A DNA stretch of 62,559 nucleotides, taken from assembly GCA_002688775.1 (NCBI GenBank), contig NZDH01000017.1, positions 1 to 62,559 on the forward strand, given 5' to 3'. The notes under the pieces were generated by a model that searched no databases, was not told the DNA's origin, and saw only the letters and a program-made list of their open reading frames with translations. Position numbers and translations under genes: made by a program. This document shows, one piece after another, positions 33,312-59,672 of the stretch (position 1 is the stretch's first letter; each line of letters begins with the position of its first letter). The stretch comes from Candidatus Woesearchaeota archaeon (GTDB lineage Archaea; Nanobdellota; Nanobdellia; Woesearchaeales; GW2011-AR4).

Positions 33312-34436
33312 TTATACTTCACTAACAAAAAAAGAATGATATTGAATTCGACCTTCATGTCCCAGATGCCTAATCGCTGCTTTGCTTGCTCTCTGTACAA
33401 GTGTAGTCATATTTAAATCAACCTGCCTTTGAGCTCTTTCTAAATATTGTCTTGCAAAATCACCTAAAAAAGTATCGCCAGCTCCGCTTGTTTTTCCAAA
33501 TCTCGATTTTATAGATGTACCCACTCTCCTGCCATGTTCTTCGGTCAGCCCAGTTCTATATATTTTAGTGCCATCATATGAATACAATACACCCCCGGAA
33601 CCAAGTGTTACAATCAAGGGATGGCCATTACTCAAACTATCAGCTCTTATTTGCCTCATGTGCTCCAAAGCAACATTTCGCAAACCCGCTTTATCAAACT
33701 CCATTGGATTGTATCCATTAATCCTTACCAAGTCCTCATATCCGAATAAAGTTACCCCAGCGGGTAAAACCCTTTCATAAACAAAATCTTTGTCCAAAGA
33801 AGGGGTTACCATGAAGAATACCGGAATGTTTCTTCTTTGTGCACTTTGTAATAGAGCCTCGACAAAATCTTCATCTTTAGCGCCGTTAACGATAAGACCG
33901 TCTGACTGTTCAATGACATCATCTATTACGGCTCTATGTTCATCCAGCAATTGTTTTCTCGGAAGTCGCGGGCCTTTTAAGATAATCTTGTCATGATGGC
34001 CACCTATAACCGCATTGACAGGGGATGGTCTATAACCAAAGAAGTGGTGTAGGATCTCAGAATCATCTAGGTGATGGGTTATTACTGGATCATTTTGTGA
34101 CATATCTAATATAGTTATTCTAACATCAGAATCAAAATCTGATCTGGCAATTAAGGACACTGCAGTATTTATGTTTCCCCCTCCTGGTTTCAGTTGAAAT
34201 TTTAAGCCTCTTATATAATCTTCCATGCCCCTTTGATAAGAACTTGCATCTAACATTACAGTATGTTTGTAGCCGTGTGTTATAGGACCGTCTTCAACTA
34301 TAAAATCTCTGAAAAAACTGCCGGAAGTAACTGTTACCGAATCTGGCAGTTCAATTTCCACTATTCCTTCAAGATCAGCATCTAATGCTGCGTTGCCTGC
34401 CACAGTCATATTTAGTTTTAATCCTTCTTCAGTCAT
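33312..34436 (-). CDS. PfkB-family carbohydrate kinase (divergent)
   Basis: PGGGNINTA, VTLGSGG, TSGAGDTF. Confidence 0.75.
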   Translation of the reverse strand: MTEEGLKLNMTVAGNAALDADLEGIVEIELPDSVTVTSGSFFRDFIVEDGPITHGYKHTVMLDASSYQRGMEDYIRGLKFQLKPGGGNINTAVSLIARSDFDSDVRITILDMSQNDPVITHHLDDSEILHHFFGYRPSPVNAVIGGHHDKIILKGPRLPRKQLLDEHRAVIDDVIEQSDGLIVNGAKDEDFVEALLQSAQRRNIPVFFMVTPSLDKDFVYERVLPAGVTLFGYEDLVRINGYNPMEFDKAGLRNVALEHMRQIRADSLSNGHPLIVTLGSGGVLYSYDGTKIYRTGLTEEHGRRVGTSIKSRFGKTSGAGDTFLGDFARQYLERAQRQVDLNMTTLVQRASKAAIRHLGHEGRIQYHSFFVSEV

Positions 34437-34513
34437 TTATATTTCTCCAAATGTAGTATTTTCTACAGGTATTTTGAAAGTATTTTATAACTTTCGGTAA
34501 TTGTCTCTTAAAG

Positions 34514-35479
34514 TCAGAAATACTGTGAATTCTTCAAATTCCCCTCAATCCTCTTCAGAACATCTTCATTCTTTGCTTCAAACTGTTTTCCAGTTATCAT
34601 TTCATAAGCGGTAATGTACCTTTTTGCAGCTTCAATTTTGACTTCATCAGGTATTTGTGGAATTTCTCCTTCGCCTATGAATCCTTTTTCAGCTAACCAT
34701 TGCCTTACATACTCCTTGTCAAGCTTTTTAGGTCCTTGATTTTTTGAGAATAATTCTTCATAAGTATCCTTGATCCAGAATCTTGAAGAATCCGGTGTAT
34801 GGATTTCATCAATCAGGACAAGCTCACCATCAAGCTCGCCAAATTCATACTTTGTATCAACTAATATCAAATTATTTTTTGCAATAAATTCATTTCCAAA
34901 ATTGTAAAGGGCTAATGCGGCTTTTTCCATCTGCCTGTACATTTTCTCTTCAACTAACCCTTGTTTAATTATTTCATCCCCAGAAATAGATTCGTCATGG
35001 GCACCATGCCCTGCCTTTGTTGTTGGCGTTATGATTGGTTTTTCAAATTTCTGATGCTTTTTCAGACCTTCTGGAAGAATGTTTCCGCAAAAATTCCTGA
35101 CACCTTTTTCATAATTATACCATGCAGAAGTTTTTGTGACGCCGGTTATATAACCCCTTACAACCATCTCAACCGGCAGCAATTTGCATTGCTTTACAAC
35201 CATTACATTTGGATCCGGAACATTAATAATGTGGTTTTTTACAATATCTTTAGTTTGCTCAAACCAAAAAGCAGCTGTCTGGTTAAGAACCTGCCCCTTG
35301 AATGGAATTGTACAAAGAACCTTGTCAAAAGCAGAAATCCTGTCTGTTGTTATTATGGTTCTTTTTCCATCTAAAATATAGTTATCCCTGACTTTGCCCT
35401 CGTATTTCTTGCCAATGTTGAAATTGGTTTTATCCAACATATGGTTTAGTTGGGTTTTTAGGATTTGGTCTGATAGCAT
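34514..35479 (-). CDS. purC: SAICAR synthase
   Basis: GKVRD, TDRISAFD, VDTKYEFG, DEIHTPDSSRFW. Confidence 0.96.
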   Translation of the reverse strand: MLSDQILKTQLNHMLDKTNFNIGKKYEGKVRDNYILDGKRTIITTDRISAFDKVLCTIPFKGQVLNQTAAFWFEQTKDIVKNHIINVPDPNVMVVKQCKLLPVEMVVRGYITGVTKTSAWYNYEKGVRNFCGNILPEGLKKHQKFEKPIITPTTKAGHGAHDESISGDEIIKQGLVEEKMYRQMEKAALALYNFGNEFIAKNNLILVDTKYEFGELDGELVLIDEIHTPDSSRFWIKDTYEELFSKNQGPKKLDKEYVRQWLAEKGFIGEGEIPQIPDEVKIEAAKRYITAYEMITGKQFEAKNEDVLKRIEGNLKNSQYF

Positions 35480-35535
35480 CTTAAATTTAGAATAAATGCT
35501 AGGTTTTTAAAGTTTTTTCTTTATGCCAGAATAAG

Positions 35536-35654
35536 CGCCGCGGCTGGGATTTCCACCCAGAAAGGACGCATAGTCTTCCTGAAATTTGAACCCAGAAGCT
35601 CTTGCGAGCAGGAGGTTCTGAAACTCCCGGAATACCAGATTATCCTACCGCGGC
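35536..35654 (-). tRNA. Type II tRNA, anticodon CAG, serine-like body (G73), T-loop intron 35550-35584
   Basis: GCCGCGG TA GGAT AATCTGGTA TTCC G GGAGT TT CAG AA CCTCC T GCTC GCAA GAGC TT CTGGG TTCAAA[35 nt]T CCCAG CCGCGGC G. Confidence 0.8.
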
Positions 35655-35693
35655 ATAGCAAAGTTTAAATACTTAATAGCCCTTCATAGTAGT

Positions 35694-35732
35694 GAGGTTC
35701 TGAAGCTCTTTGAATACCGGTTATCTTACCGG
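35694..35732 (-). repeat. Degenerate copy of the 5' half of the adjacent tRNA
   Basis: CCGGTAAGATAACCGGTATTCAAAGAGCTTCAGAACCTC vs GCGGTAGGATAATCTGGTATTCCGGGAGTTTCAGAACCTC; no T arm follows. Confidence 0.7.
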
Positions 35733-35776
35733 TTTTATTTTTCTTTTAATTCTGTAAGAAGACTTACTTTATATAC

Positions 35777-35797
35777 TTCACACGTCCATGTCCAGTG
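35777..35797 (-). promoter_or_regulatory. 21-bp motif abutting a TATA box (copy 2)
   Basis: CACTGGACATGGACGTGTGAA then GTATATAAA. Confidence 0.6.
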
Positions 35798-35854
35798 TCC
35801 ATTGCTACTAAGAAGTATAGTTTTTAGAATATAAATCAGAAAAAATTTTCCAAA

Positions 35855-36622
35855 TTATTTATTCGCTCCCAAAACTTTCTTTCCGATCTCTCTTCTGTAC
35901 ATTGTCAAAAATTCTTCAAAACTGTTGTCAATGTTCATTATCTCAACAGCAGCAACTGCTGCGTTAACACCATTATTAGTTCCAACCCACAATCCATGAT
36001 CACTGTGTTTTAAGAAGTTCAAAGCAGATTCTGCTTTGTCATCATCTTCTTTCAACAAAGGACAATATATGATCAATCCATTCTTTTTCTCAATCGGCTC
36101 ATCAAAATGAGTAAATTCTATATTAACTGTGTTTTTGTTCGGTTTATCAGAAAAAGTGTATGGCGCATTTAATGATTTCAGGATTTCAACTGCTTTTTTA
36201 ACTGCCTTGTTGTCTTTATCGCCGATTATTGTAACACTTTCGTATTTTTTCATCATTTTGGCGCAGTTTTGAGCAGCGATTTCGCCTTTGTTTACTCCGA
36301 CAGCCAAAACAGGGACTCCAGGCGGCATCTGGGCAACTGAAAGCAATGCATCTAATCCCTGATAACTGCCTTCACAAGGAACTCCAATCACAGGTTTCAT
36401 AATTCTTGCAGCAACAACACCTGGAAGATGAGCTGCTAAACCAGCTCCTGCAATAACAACAGCGTAATCATTCTTCAAAGTTTGATCAACATCGTCTGGA
36501 GTCTTATGCGCAGAACTAACTCTCAAGTCAAAATCAACTTTTAATTTTTTTAGGTTTTCAGCTATTTCATTGTATACTTTCTCATCTGATTTTGAGCCGA
36601 ATATTACTAACGCTTTGTTCAT
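35855..36622 (-). CDS. purE: PurE with a degenerate second PurE-like domain
   Basis: GSKSD, SAHKTP, AGAGLAAHLPG, PVIGVP, QMPPGVPV; C-terminal LWVGTNNGVNAA echo. Confidence 0.88.
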   Translation of the reverse strand: MNKALVIFGSKSDEKVYNEIAENLKKLKVDFDLRVSSAHKTPDDVDQTLKNDYAVVIAGAGLAAHLPGVVAARIMKPVIGVPCEGSYQGLDALLSVAQMPPGVPVLAVGVNKGEIAAQNCAKMMKKYESVTIIGDKDNKAVKKAVEILKSLNAPYTFSDKPNKNTVNIEFTHFDEPIEKKNGLIIYCPLLKEDDDKAESALNFLKHSDHGLWVGTNNGVNAAVAAVEIMNIDNSFEEFLTMYRREIGKKVLGANK

Positions 36623-36630
36623 TTTCCCAC

Positions 36631-37083
36631 CTACAATATAGTATATTCCTGATAATGCTCACTCACTAATAACTCTTTCGCTGCTTTTTCAGCGATTTTT
36701 TTTGCTTCTTTCTCGTCAGCGTCTATGTTAAGGCTCCACAGAACTGACTTTTCAACTCTTTTGATGTTTTCAAACCCAAGTCTGTTTTTTAATGTTGCTA
36801 AAATGCCGCTTCCATCATTTAAATTTCTTACTAATATTTTAACATAGTTATTGTTTGGAATTGAAAAATCATATGAATGCTTGTTGGCATTGACTAAAAT
36901 ATCGACTTTGCATATTTTATTCTTAAACTCTTCTAAATCATCTTCAACAGAAAACTTGTAATAACTTGATCTTGTAACATCTTTTATTTTACTGAATCCT
37001 AGTTTCTGCAAAGTCTGCAGCGCAGTGATAGCTGTAGTATCAGGAACTTTCAGGCTTACGATCATGTCTACTGTTTTTGTCAT
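36631..37083 (-). CDS. purS: Tandem (double-domain) PurS
   Basis: Two PurS-like halves (LQKLGF..ILVN; LKNRLGF..LLVS); position in the pur operon. Confidence 0.7.
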   Translation of the reverse strand: MTKTVDMIVSLKVPDTTAITALQTLQKLGFSKIKDVTRSSYYKFSVEDDLEEFKNKICKVDILVNANKHSYDFSIPNNNYVKILVRNLNDGSGILATLKNRLGFENIKRVEKSVLWSLNIDADEKEAKKIAEKAAKELLVSEHYQEYTIL

Positions 37084-37084
37084 T

Positions 37085-37365
37085 TTATACCATACCGAGG
37101 ATTCTTTTCATATAAGGAGCCACATGAACCCTATAGTCCTCTATATCTACTGGATCGTACCCTCTTGATTCACATCCCCGTAAAATTGCATTAAATCTCT
37201 TTACAAGTGTTCTCAGTCTTTGTCCATCTTGTGTGAATTTCATTTGACTTAATAAGGTGTCAAGCTCAATATTGTCCTATCAGGGATTAGTGATGATTCG
37301 AAAGGCATCTCTGGCAGACCATCAAAGATAGTGCCATGTTGAAGTCTTTCTTCAATGGAATCCAT
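37085..37365 (-). pseudogene. Frameshifted hypothetical gene (~93 aa)
   Basis: MDSIEERLQHG...SLIPD, then one base short near 37277, continuing DNIELDTLL...RILGMV*. Confidence 0.5.
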
Positions 37366-37396
37366 TAAATCATAAATTTTTATCACCTAAATGATT

Positions 37397-37666
37397 TTAA
37401 TCTGTCCTATTGCCATAAATTTCTTGAGCTTTCGGATGTTGCTGCAAGCATGAAGACAAATCCATGAGTCTTTGCTTAGCTTCAGCATCATTGACATCCA
37501 TAGTATAATATTCCCTAACTACCAGTCTATATTCAGCTGCCAAGTCTCTAACTCCTCGCACGTCATGAGATTCCCTGATTCGTTCCAATAATGTTTCAAG
37601 ACGCTTAACAGCATCAATCGGAAATTTTTGGCTGCCAGGTGGTTGCGAATCATCAATTAATGCCAT
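37397..37666 (-). CDS. Hypothetical protein
   Basis: 89-aa ORF abutting the purQ stop. Confidence 0.6.
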   Translation of the reverse strand: MALIDDSQPPGSQKFPIDAVKRLETLLERIRESHDVRGVRDLAAEYRLVVREYYTMDVNDAEAKQRLMDLSSCLQQHPKAQEIYGNRTD

Positions 37667-54553: not shown

Positions 54554-54694
54554 AAAAATCAAAGATGCCGGTGTTCATAAATAGTTTTCTATTTAGAGCT
54601 GGGTTCAGAACAATAGAGCTAAGACTACCAGTTAATGGAATTAAAAATAAGAAAAAATAAAATGAAAACCATGCATAGGCTTTTGAATTATGAA

Positions 54695-57600
<2,906 letters not shown>

Positions 57601-57862
57601 TTTTATTAGCTTTATTGTGCTAATGACAAAAGCCTATGCATGGTTTCATGAATTTCAACCTTTACCGTCCTGAGCGATCAGTCTTTGCCTCAGGAAGGCA
57701 CTTCATTAATTTTTTTATTATTCAAAGATGCCTGAGCATCTTCAACGATTAATGACGATGAATTGTTTGATTTTATTTTTTGAATAATTATTTTTTTATG
57801 ATTGATTTTTATTTTTTAATGTTTGAATTTTTTATTGTACTTTCTCTTTTGCTAAATATAAA

Positions 57863-57983
57863 TGGACCCGTCGGGACTTTCATCTTAAACCCGTGAGTTA
57901 AATTTTGAACCCGAAGCCTCTGCCTTTCATTGAAATACAAAACTTCGTGCAAGGGCAGCGCTCTGCGGTTGAGCTACGGGCCC
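57863..57983 (-). tRNA. tRNA-Ala(UGC) in the rRNA spacer with two introns (37/38: 57926-57947; 59/60: 57877-57903)
   Basis: GGGCCCG/CGGGTCC acceptor with G3:U70, CTGCC CT TGC A..A GGCAG, TTCA/TGAA BHB in the T loop. Confidence 0.9.
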
Positions 57984-58075
57984 AATTGTGTATGAATATT
58001 ATCAATTTTTTAAGTTGATAATTTTCGAATTTTATTCAATAATATTTATGATAATCTATGATTATAAAAAATAAA

Positions 58076-59672
<1,597 letters not shown>

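Follow-up and report, generated by a model that had tools for sequence, protein, structure and literature searches.

A class II tRNA gene with a leucine anticodon and a T-loop intron

The stretch of DNA analysed here (hereafter the window: the complete 62,559-nucleotide contig NZDH01000017.1 of the Candidatus Woesearchaeota assembly GCA_002688775.1, order Woesearchaeales) carries on its minus strand a tRNA gene in which a serine-type class II body is joined to the leucine anticodon CAG. The window is contig C7 of a genome (G000) that comprises 1.04 Mb in 19 contigs, with 36% G+C and an estimated completeness of 72.8%. The gene (Table 1) displays the features of a class II cloverleaf, namely a 7-bp acceptor stem (GCCGCGG / CCGCGGC), U33 in a 7-nt anticodon loop, a long variable arm (a region of 15 nt whose 4-bp stem is capped by a GCAA loop) and a T arm with a TTCRA loop; its discriminator is G73 (position 35536), A37 follows the anticodon, and the anticodon stem contains a U31-C39 mismatch. 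The acceptor stem, G73, variable arm, A37, mismatch, CAG anticodon and T-loop intron with its bulge-helix-bulge (BHB) motif had been listed in a preliminary description made from the letters of the window, and all of them were recovered on the minus strand.

The intron passed a strict search for the hBHBh' motif (a central helix of 4 bp between two 3-nt bulges, with minimum lengths of 3 bp for the outer and 2 bp for the inner helix), which recovered it at junction 70, and a genome-wide scan simulating BHB splicing in G000 (78,691 trial splices) yielded 44 junction-spanning tRNAs called by ARAGORN, the window locus among them. The same genome encodes an EndA-type endonuclease (EndA domain, 97 bits). 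After splicing, the 84-nt form was called tRNA-Leu(cag) by ARAGORN; in a scan of the unspliced window the gene was invisible to both ARAGORN and Rfam. Exon 1 lines up gap-free with 28 relatives and was the top match in G000 of a covariance model built for this exon (R1, 87.9 bits). Contigs of three DNA sequencing runs from three studies (2014, 2020 and 2023), any of which could be the source sample, though not all of them at once, match positions 35400-35800 with 0 differences; a base-call error, against which the preliminary description had already argued, is therefore excluded. No RNA run was listed for positions 33500-37500, and the one metatranscriptome examined had no contig there.

Table 1. 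Features of the window (C7) and canonical tRNA-Leu genes of the same genome
Feature	Position	Strand	Basis or remark
tRNA gene, 119-nt pre-tRNA to 84-nt mature class II tRNA, anticodon CAG	35536..35654	-	direct reading
Exon 1, 70 nt, tRNA positions 1-59 (acceptor 5' strand, D arm, anticodon arm, variable arm, T stem 5' strand, TTCAAA of T loop)	35585..35654	-	
Anticodon CAG (CTG on the + strand), U33 before, A37 after	35618..35620	-	
Intron, 35 nt, between positions 59/60 in the T loop, hBHBh' splice motif	35550..35584	-	
Exon 2, 14 nt: position 60, T stem 3' strand, acceptor 3' strand, G73; CCA not encoded	35536..35549	-	
Downstream neighbour, SAICAR synthetase (purC-type)	34514..35479	-	PF01259, 240 bits
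Upstream neighbour, AIR carboxylase (purE-type)	35855..36622	-	PF00731, 150 bits
Degenerate partial copy of tRNA positions 5-43, upstream of the gene	35694..35731	-	82% identity, E 0.0013; nhmmer E 0.25
Canonical Leu(UAG)	G000 C9:4498-4641		anticodon via intron-less or ARAGORN-callable orthologues
Canonical Leu(CAA)	G000 C6:42240-42424		by eye from intron-bearing genus orthologues with a shared CTCAAG loop (L091-L093), beside intron-less Leu(CAA) of other families (L145, L149)
Canonical Leu(GAG)	G000 C3:176221-176328		anticodon-stem intron; ARAGORN had called Met; fixed via orthologues
Canonical Leu(UAA)	G000 C8:31645-31766		G000 gene inspected by eye; ARAGORN calls UAA for relatives in G006 (L269)

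A serine-type body

Outside the anticodon arm the window tRNA is an almost base-for-base match to the true tRNA-Ser(UGA) of two relatives (G095 and G105), the shared parts being the acceptor strand, the D arm, the T stem and the layout of the variable arm. With the 7-nt anticodon loop removed, its mean identity was 0.73 to 16 true tRNA-Ser and 0.41 to seven canonical tRNA-Leu (as compared to 0.82 to 28 relatives of the genus and 0.69 to 18 relatives from across the order). A maximum-likelihood tree of 70 rows, from which genes without a readable 3' end, with a variable-arm intron or with a mature length outside 82-88 nt were excluded, separated canonical tRNA-Leu at 99% SH-aLRT and placed the window tRNA and its relatives intermixed with true tRNA-Ser, with poor resolution inside this grouping. 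The combination of G73 with a 15-nt variable region (4-bp stem, 4-nt loop) is the geometry of the true tRNA-Ser of G000, G013, G095 and G105; the anticodon, CAG, is neither of the serine forms (NGA or GCU). Class II structure and a leucine anticodon are shared with canonical archaeal tRNA-Leu, but the A73, G37 and T(T/A)AGT variable loop of the latter are missing. Judged by its sequence, the window tRNA is serine-type everywhere but in the anticodon arm, and the serine-type body proposed in the preliminary description is upheld. That proposal would have suffered if the ordinary tRNA-Leu of relatives also carried G73; they were found to carry A73.

A conserved family in Woesearchaeales

We refer to the serine-bodied tRNAs with U-middle-column anticodons in Woesearchaeales as the type 2 family. 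A sister gene within G000 (C3:39690-39804, anticodon GAG) has the window gene's acceptor stem and T arm, together with G73, A37, the mismatch at 31-39 and an intron at 59/60. By blastn the family was present in 29 of 43 genomes of the genus (an earlier search had returned 18/24 for the genus and 0/16 for other families of the order), and 30 genes could be parsed from 20 of these genomes. Their anticodons (GAG 9, CAG 6, AAG 6, GAT 5, GAC 2, GAA 1 and TAG 1) belong to leucine in 22 cases and to isoleucine, valine or phenylalanine in the other eight. U33 and A37 occur in 30/30, A35 is invariant, G73 was found in 29/30 (and in every order-level gene with a readable 3' end), and the 59/60 intron is universal (30/30, 20-84 nt long); positions 31-39 are unpaired in 21 genes and paired in nine. 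Between one and four type 2 copies were parsed per genus genome (up to six were read in G085), the anticodon sets differ between genomes, and GAG or AAG, never both, was seen in the 15 parsed genomes having either. A34 is rare among archaeal tRNAs; here it occurs, as AAG, in six members (G006, G007, G010, G042, G046 and G050; loci L172, L039, L035, L175, L168 and L165, respectively).

In a 29-sequence alignment of exon 1, 90.4% of helix cells pair and compensatory changes are seen in 11 of 13 pairs; among 500 shuffled controls none matched the observed paired cells or covariation score, and six matched the count of compensated pairs. Moreover, one anticodon arm is seen on several bodies, and one body carries different arms with compensated stems (e.g. 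the AAG and GAC genes of G006), which argues that the anticodon classes are old and maintained and not fresh mutations. Type 2 paralogues hardly differ in acceptor stem and T arm, regions that vary among true tRNA-Ser.

The covariance model R1 fits true tRNA-Ser as well and cannot tell the two apart, and it accordingly had matches in every genome of the order (151 of 151). By eye we read 30 top-scoring loci and 20 hand-chosen regions from genomes with many hits, a sample that is biased by this choice. This order-level reading produced 27 genes with proper serine anticodons and, outside the genus, 23 more serine-like G73 genes with anticodons CAG, GAG, GAT, GAC or GAA (C33 in two; one anticodon reading, at L234, ambiguous), distributed over 11 genomes, ten of which come from other families and one from another genus of the same family. 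The window gene is thus a member of a conserved, old, multi-copy Woesearchaeales family and not a one-off; the family's anticodons all belong to codons with U in the middle (CAG, GAG, AAG and UAG for Leu, GAU for Ile, GAC for Val and GAA for Phe). What is new beyond the preliminary description is this large conserved family, also with isoleucine, valine and phenylalanine anticodons, beside a canonical tRNA-Leu set. As no description of an archaeal family of serine-bodied tRNAs with hydrophobic-codon anticodons was found in the literature searched, it appears to be previously undescribed in Archaea.

A third serine-like class II gene was observed in G000 (C18:3689-3804, plus strand, duplicated at C2:35187), with acceptor GCCGGGG, G73, a T-loop intron, a 22-nt variable arm and the anticodon UAA with G37; its anticodon arm nearly matches that of canonical Leu(UAA).

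Canonical tRNAs in the same genomes

G000 encodes four canonical class II tRNA-Leu (Table 1), all of them intron-rich; A73, G37 and a variable loop reading T(T/A)AGT mark each of them, as they do every canonical tRNA-Leu seen in the order. A multi-intron brute-force solver returned ambiguous anticodons for such intron-rich genes, and intron-less orthologues decided; regex scans for canonical tRNA-Phe and for leucine variable loops were too noisy for counting. Two canonical leucine body types were found in 39/43 and 40/43 genus genomes. Canonical GAG was called by ARAGORN at seven of 29 genus loci scanned, and its TTGAGG loop was recognised by eye in five more, among eight relatives aligned.

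The canonical genes coexist with type 2 genes: canonical GAG with type 2 GAG or AAG in G006, G021, G001 and G018 (canonical and type 2 GAG together in G000, G021, G001 and G018), canonical class I tRNA-Ile(GAU) with type 2 GAU in G006 and G007, and canonical Val(GAC) with type 2 GAC in G006. Type 2 GAG, GAU and GAC thus have canonical twins in the manner of the nematode nev-tRNAs discussed below, and no canonical twin was found for CAG. We had at one stage considered type 2 GAG and CAG to be the sole CUY/CUG decoders, and hence leucine-carrying; this was dropped once the canonical A73/G37 Leu(GAG) was found at C3:176221-176328. The preliminary description had called for a check for a separate canonical tRNA-Leu(CAG): UAA, CAA, UAG and GAG are all present on canonical bodies, and canonical CAG was found neither in G000 (72.8% complete) nor in the genus loci sampled (it exists in another family, in G028). 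Canonical UAG is able to read CUG by wobble. As a duplicate of canonical decoders, the family is not required for the reading of its codons.

Several side observations concern the tRNA genes of these genomes at large. Genes with up to three introns in non-canonical places (D loop, 30/31, 37/38 and 59/60) occur in G000 (C6:42240-42424, C10:40429-40589, C4:14005-14173 and C18 near 38,330, the last being a likely intron-rich canonical tRNA-Phe) and in relatives (L069 and L091), and several of these introns share a hairpin (GAGCC-GAAA-GGC core) with GATGA-like flanking boxes, resembling a k-turn or C/D-box element. ARAGORN also reported intron-containing genes with the candidate anticodon TAT (Ile, AUA) in G000 (C4:9983-10125) and G006 (L248). 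Contig ends C2/C18, C1/C17 and C8/C9 of G000 share identical stretches that include tRNA genes; these are redundant assembly pieces, and copy numbers in G000 are therefore to be read with care.

CUG as a leucine codon

The meaning of CUG was investigated by comparing 102 long open reading frames (ORFs) of G000 with 400 kb of a genome from another family (G039; median identity 41%, 34,389 aligned codons). The proportion of codons aligned to leucine was 52.4% for CTG (n=515), in comparison to 49.8% for CTT, 44.3% for CTC, 46.3% for CTA, 46.3% for TTA and 48.6% for TTG (TTR pooled: 47%, 781/1647). Serine and threonine together made up 1.9-4.8% of partners over all six leucine codons (CTG 3.3%), and the codon-level partners of CTG (TTR 129, CTN 141, serine codons 9) follow the pattern of TTA and TTG. 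CTG is moreover frequent (13.3 per 1000 codons vs 7.7 for CTA), and amino-acid composition under the standard code is ordinary (Leu 9.26%, Ser 6.42%). CUG is a leucine codon here and has not been reassigned; the pattern expected under a CUG-to-Ser code (table 12 type) was absent from G000. The occurrence of CTG at conserved leucine positions, which the preliminary description had noted in three proteins, holds genome-wide, the scale at which it was checked in place of those proteins. A 2026 screen of archaeal assemblies puts CTG-to-Ser signals down to contamination and reports no genuine CTG change (10.64898/2026.04.02.715157).

Synthetases and identity elements

One seryl-tRNA synthetase (SerRS) and one leucyl-tRNA synthetase (LeuRS) were found in G000 and in each of five other genomes searched (5/5), the SerRS of G000, at L061:1501-2748, being full-length (503 bits), and no second LeuRS or SerRS that could serve the family was detected in these six genomes. 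The LeuRS of G000 (C3:180357-183065; L063:58-2763) scores as bacterial-type (TIGR00396: 983 bits, cut-off 548; archaeal model: 279 bits, cut-off 648). Its residues 7-578 match Thermus thermophilus LeuRS (1H3N, E 2e-244), and residues 523-901 match the C-terminal half of the Pyrococcus horikoshii enzyme (1WZ2, residues 595-966, E 2e-63); going by these matches, it is an unusual bacterial/archaeal hybrid. A LeuRS of like bacterial-type score and length is present in all five other genomes, including two from other families (G039 and G030).

Archaeal LeuRS holds the variable arm with its C-terminal domain, and the anticodon arm goes unread by known SerRS. The A73, G37 and variable-loop A-G motif of the canonical tRNA-Leu recovered here correspond to published archaeal LeuRS elements, and all three are absent from type 2. 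According to PMC9976931, A73 is decisive for every LeuRS studied, and the G73 of tRNA-Ser functions as a LeuRS antideterminant in Escherichia coli and Haloferax volcanii.

Genomic surroundings

The window tRNA sits within a row of purine-synthesis genes and not in a mobile element: its immediate neighbours are given in Table 1, and genes for PurS and a glutamine amidotransferase lie farther upstream. The degenerate upstream copy cited in the preliminary description is real (read as 35731..35694 on the minus strand) and includes TTCAGAACCTC. A relative (G046, L168) possesses an exact 43-nt duplicate of the 5' part, 79 nt upstream of its gene, and these partial 5' copies may be remnants of integration at the tRNA or of tandem duplication. 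Family members have in common a TATTTAAA box, located at 35664-35671 in the window and also observed upstream of C3:39690 and in L168; it precedes the mature 5' end by 10-17 nt in both G000 genes and by 7-14 nt in L168, which by promoter spacing is too near for a usual archaeal TATA box. Elsewhere in the window we observed an rRNA operon (54678-59672, minus strand), whose small-subunit match of 1595 nt against a 1478-position model suggests that this gene carries an insertion, and a 121-nt intron-containing tRNA in the rRNA spacer (57863-57983).

Comparison with known discordant tRNAs

The tRNA-Ser(CAG) of CTG-clade yeasts (Candida) has a serine-type class II body with G73, as does the window tRNA, and in both settings SerRS would ignore the anticodon. 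The two differ in that CUG is reassigned in those yeasts (PMC2246281) and is here a normal leucine codon with canonical tRNA-Leu decoders; furthermore, A37, an intron at 59/60 and sister tRNAs for isoleucine, valine and phenylalanine by anticodon set the archaeal tRNA apart. Nematode nev-tRNAs, for which PMC3333845 describes a mismatched anticodon and a charge decided by the body, resemble type 2 in being class II, discordant, lineage-specific and accompanied by canonical tRNAs. They are described in the same source as tRNA-Leu-derived with glycine or isoleucine anticodons, unlike type 2, which is archaeal, nested among tRNA-Ser and restricted to the U column.

Mistranslating tRNA-Ser variants likewise combine a serine body with a foreign anticodon. 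In yeast, a tRNA-Ser with such an anticodon is reported as lethal unless second-site changes weaken the tRNA, stem shortening included (SUP17 variants, PMC6827378), and the human tRNA-Ser-AGA G35A variant, listed in PMC12993449 as a mistranslating anticodon variant, illustrates a one-step route from a serine to a phenylalanine or leucine anticodon. These are engineered alleles or rare polymorphisms, in contrast to a conserved and diversified family across an archaeal order. A 4-bp anticodon stem, to which loss of the 31-39 pair leads in 21/30 genus members, widens decoding by tRNA-Trp(CCA) to a near-cognate codon in the eukaryotes and bacteria described in PMC13092985; any comparable effect in type 2 would be by analogy.

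Charging and function

Our preferred reading, held tentatively and a little short of an even chance, is that the window gene encodes a supernumerary tRNA charged by SerRS, giving at most low-level or conditional serine at CUG. The gene would be transcribed, its 59/60 intron cut out at the BHB motif by the EndA-type endonuclease, CCA added, and serine loaded by the single, anticodon-blind SerRS; the resulting Ser-tRNA(CAG) would then compete with canonical Leu-tRNA(UAG) at CUG. Given the ordinary use of CUG for leucine, this competition must be weak or conditional, and the usual non-pairing of 31-39 may, by analogy with other 4-bp stems and with the stem-shortening changes of yeast tRNA-Ser, keep decoding weak or alter it. 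Transcription, splicing, serylation, ribosomal use and attenuation are all inferred. Serylation is ranked first because the body rules say serine (G73, a serine variable arm, no local leucine marks and a serine-like body) and because in nev-tRNAs the body sets the charge. Of the proposal of serine at CUG made in the preliminary description, the serine-type body stands, and any change in the meaning of CUG falls, given that CTG aligns as leucine. An extension that we consider unlikely is that type 2 forms a parallel serine-bodied and serine-charged set for the U column (Leu, Ile, Val and Phe codons), dedicated to programmed or conditional hydrophobic-to-serine decoding. A possible use would be to spare ribosomes from stalling while the host supplies too few branched-chain and aromatic amino acids, and the 4-bp anticodon stem and obligatory T-loop intron would in that case tune activity.

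Several observations weigh against serylation. All 30 genus anticodons belong to the hydrophobic column (22 of them to leucine), and codons for polar or small residues would be expected if SerRS did the charging. Serine does damage where a buried hydrophobic residue belongs, yet leucine-aligned sites show no depletion of CTG and CTY (270/515 and 352/719 vs 781/1647 for TTR; one-sided Fisher p 0.98 and 0.77, respectively), and one genus member (G024, GAG) has A73. Canonical bodies with CAG are missing from the genus sample and from G000 (within its 72.8% completeness), so the window tRNA could fill a real decoding slot. That genomes of 1 Mb have long conserved several copies implies a benefit left unexplained by serine charging. 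The restriction to hydrophobic-column anticodons, the lack of a codon-usage footprint and the canonical CAG gap fit a hydrophobic cargo better.

Such a cargo is the substance of the strongest rival, which we nevertheless hold to be rather improbable: that the gene is a genuine tRNA-Leu(CAG), built on a recruited serine-derived scaffold, in which type 2 receives the amino acid named by its anticodon from the hybrid LeuRS (or, for the family, from class I synthetases that take their cue from the anticodon arm) and SerRS is repelled by some antideterminant. The invariant A35, the predominance of leucine anticodons with only Ile, Val and Phe besides, the non-redundancy of CAG on this body, the A73 of one member, the unusual LeuRS, the mutual exclusion of GAG and AAG in 15 genomes, and a CTG codon that is frequent and leucine-aligned at least as often as TTR all speak in its favour. 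On the other hand, type 2 is without the A73, G37 and T(T/A)AGT loop conserved in all canonical tRNA-Leu of the order, it departs from true tRNA-Ser only in an arm that known SerRS leaves unread, the identical LeuRS type occurs in two genomes of other families, and type 2 GAG, GAU and GAC are redundant with canonical tRNAs; G73, moreover, blocks LeuRS in the systems covered by PMC9976931. More doubtful again is a role outside ordinary decoding, either as a Ser-tRNA serving some other pathway as amino-acid donor or as an uncharged tRNA-like regulator or decoy for anticodon-loop-specific nucleases, its loop being read by a protein. The supernumerary status of type 2, copy numbers and anticodon sets that vary by genome, an acceptor stem and T arm near-fixed in paralogues and variable in true tRNA-Ser, and the missing codon-usage footprint would agree with it. 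A donor charged blindly to its anticodon, however, has no reason for an invariant U33, A35 and A37 or for anticodons from a single column, and no partner gene was found, the window neighbours being purine-synthesis genes.

That the gene is a functionless, decaying duplicate of a serine tRNA gene is already disfavoured and in our judgement very improbable. It could draw on the degenerate copy adjoining the gene, on the 31-39 mismatch that weakens the anticodon stem and on the lack of an RNA run covering the locus; yet a full cloverleaf is kept in 30 genes of 20 genus genomes and in 23 genes of 11 genomes outside the genus, helix pairs are compensated (11/13) to an extent that shuffling rarely or never reproduced (0/500 for paired cells and covariation, 6/500 for compensated pairs), anticodon arms are maintained on differing bodies, and the BHB intron is intact. 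Reassignment of CUG (or CUN) to serine, as in CTG-clade yeasts, is refuted at the level of codon constraint, and we accord it almost no credence: the serine-type body of the CAG and GAG tRNAs and nothing else speaks for it, and against it stand the leucine alignment of CTG (52.4% of 515, with 3.3% serine plus threonine, and partners dominated by TTR and CTN, 129 and 141, over nine serine codons), the normal composition under the standard code, the presence of canonical tRNA-Leu(UAG) and (GAG), and the contamination invoked for CTG-to-Ser signals in the archaeal screen cited above.

Significance

Standard tRNA finders miss type 2 genes, and annotation by anticodon alone would render them as tRNA-Leu, tRNA-Ile, tRNA-Val or tRNA-Phe. 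Beyond this practical consequence, code change and regulated mistranslation draw their raw material from tRNAs in which body and anticodon are at odds, and few natural cases are known (CTG-clade yeasts, nematode nev-tRNAs, some bacteria and human variants). In the Woesearchaeales the mismatch is old, conserved and multi-copy, restricted to one column of the code and maintained, in genomes that are very small and of symbiont type, beside a complete canonical set. Should SerRS do the charging, an archaeal lineage tolerates or exploits serine at hydrophobic codons; if LeuRS, IleRS or ValRS (the isoleucyl- and valyl-tRNA synthetases) charge it, the accepted rules (A73 for leucine, G73 against LeuRS) fail in this lineage.

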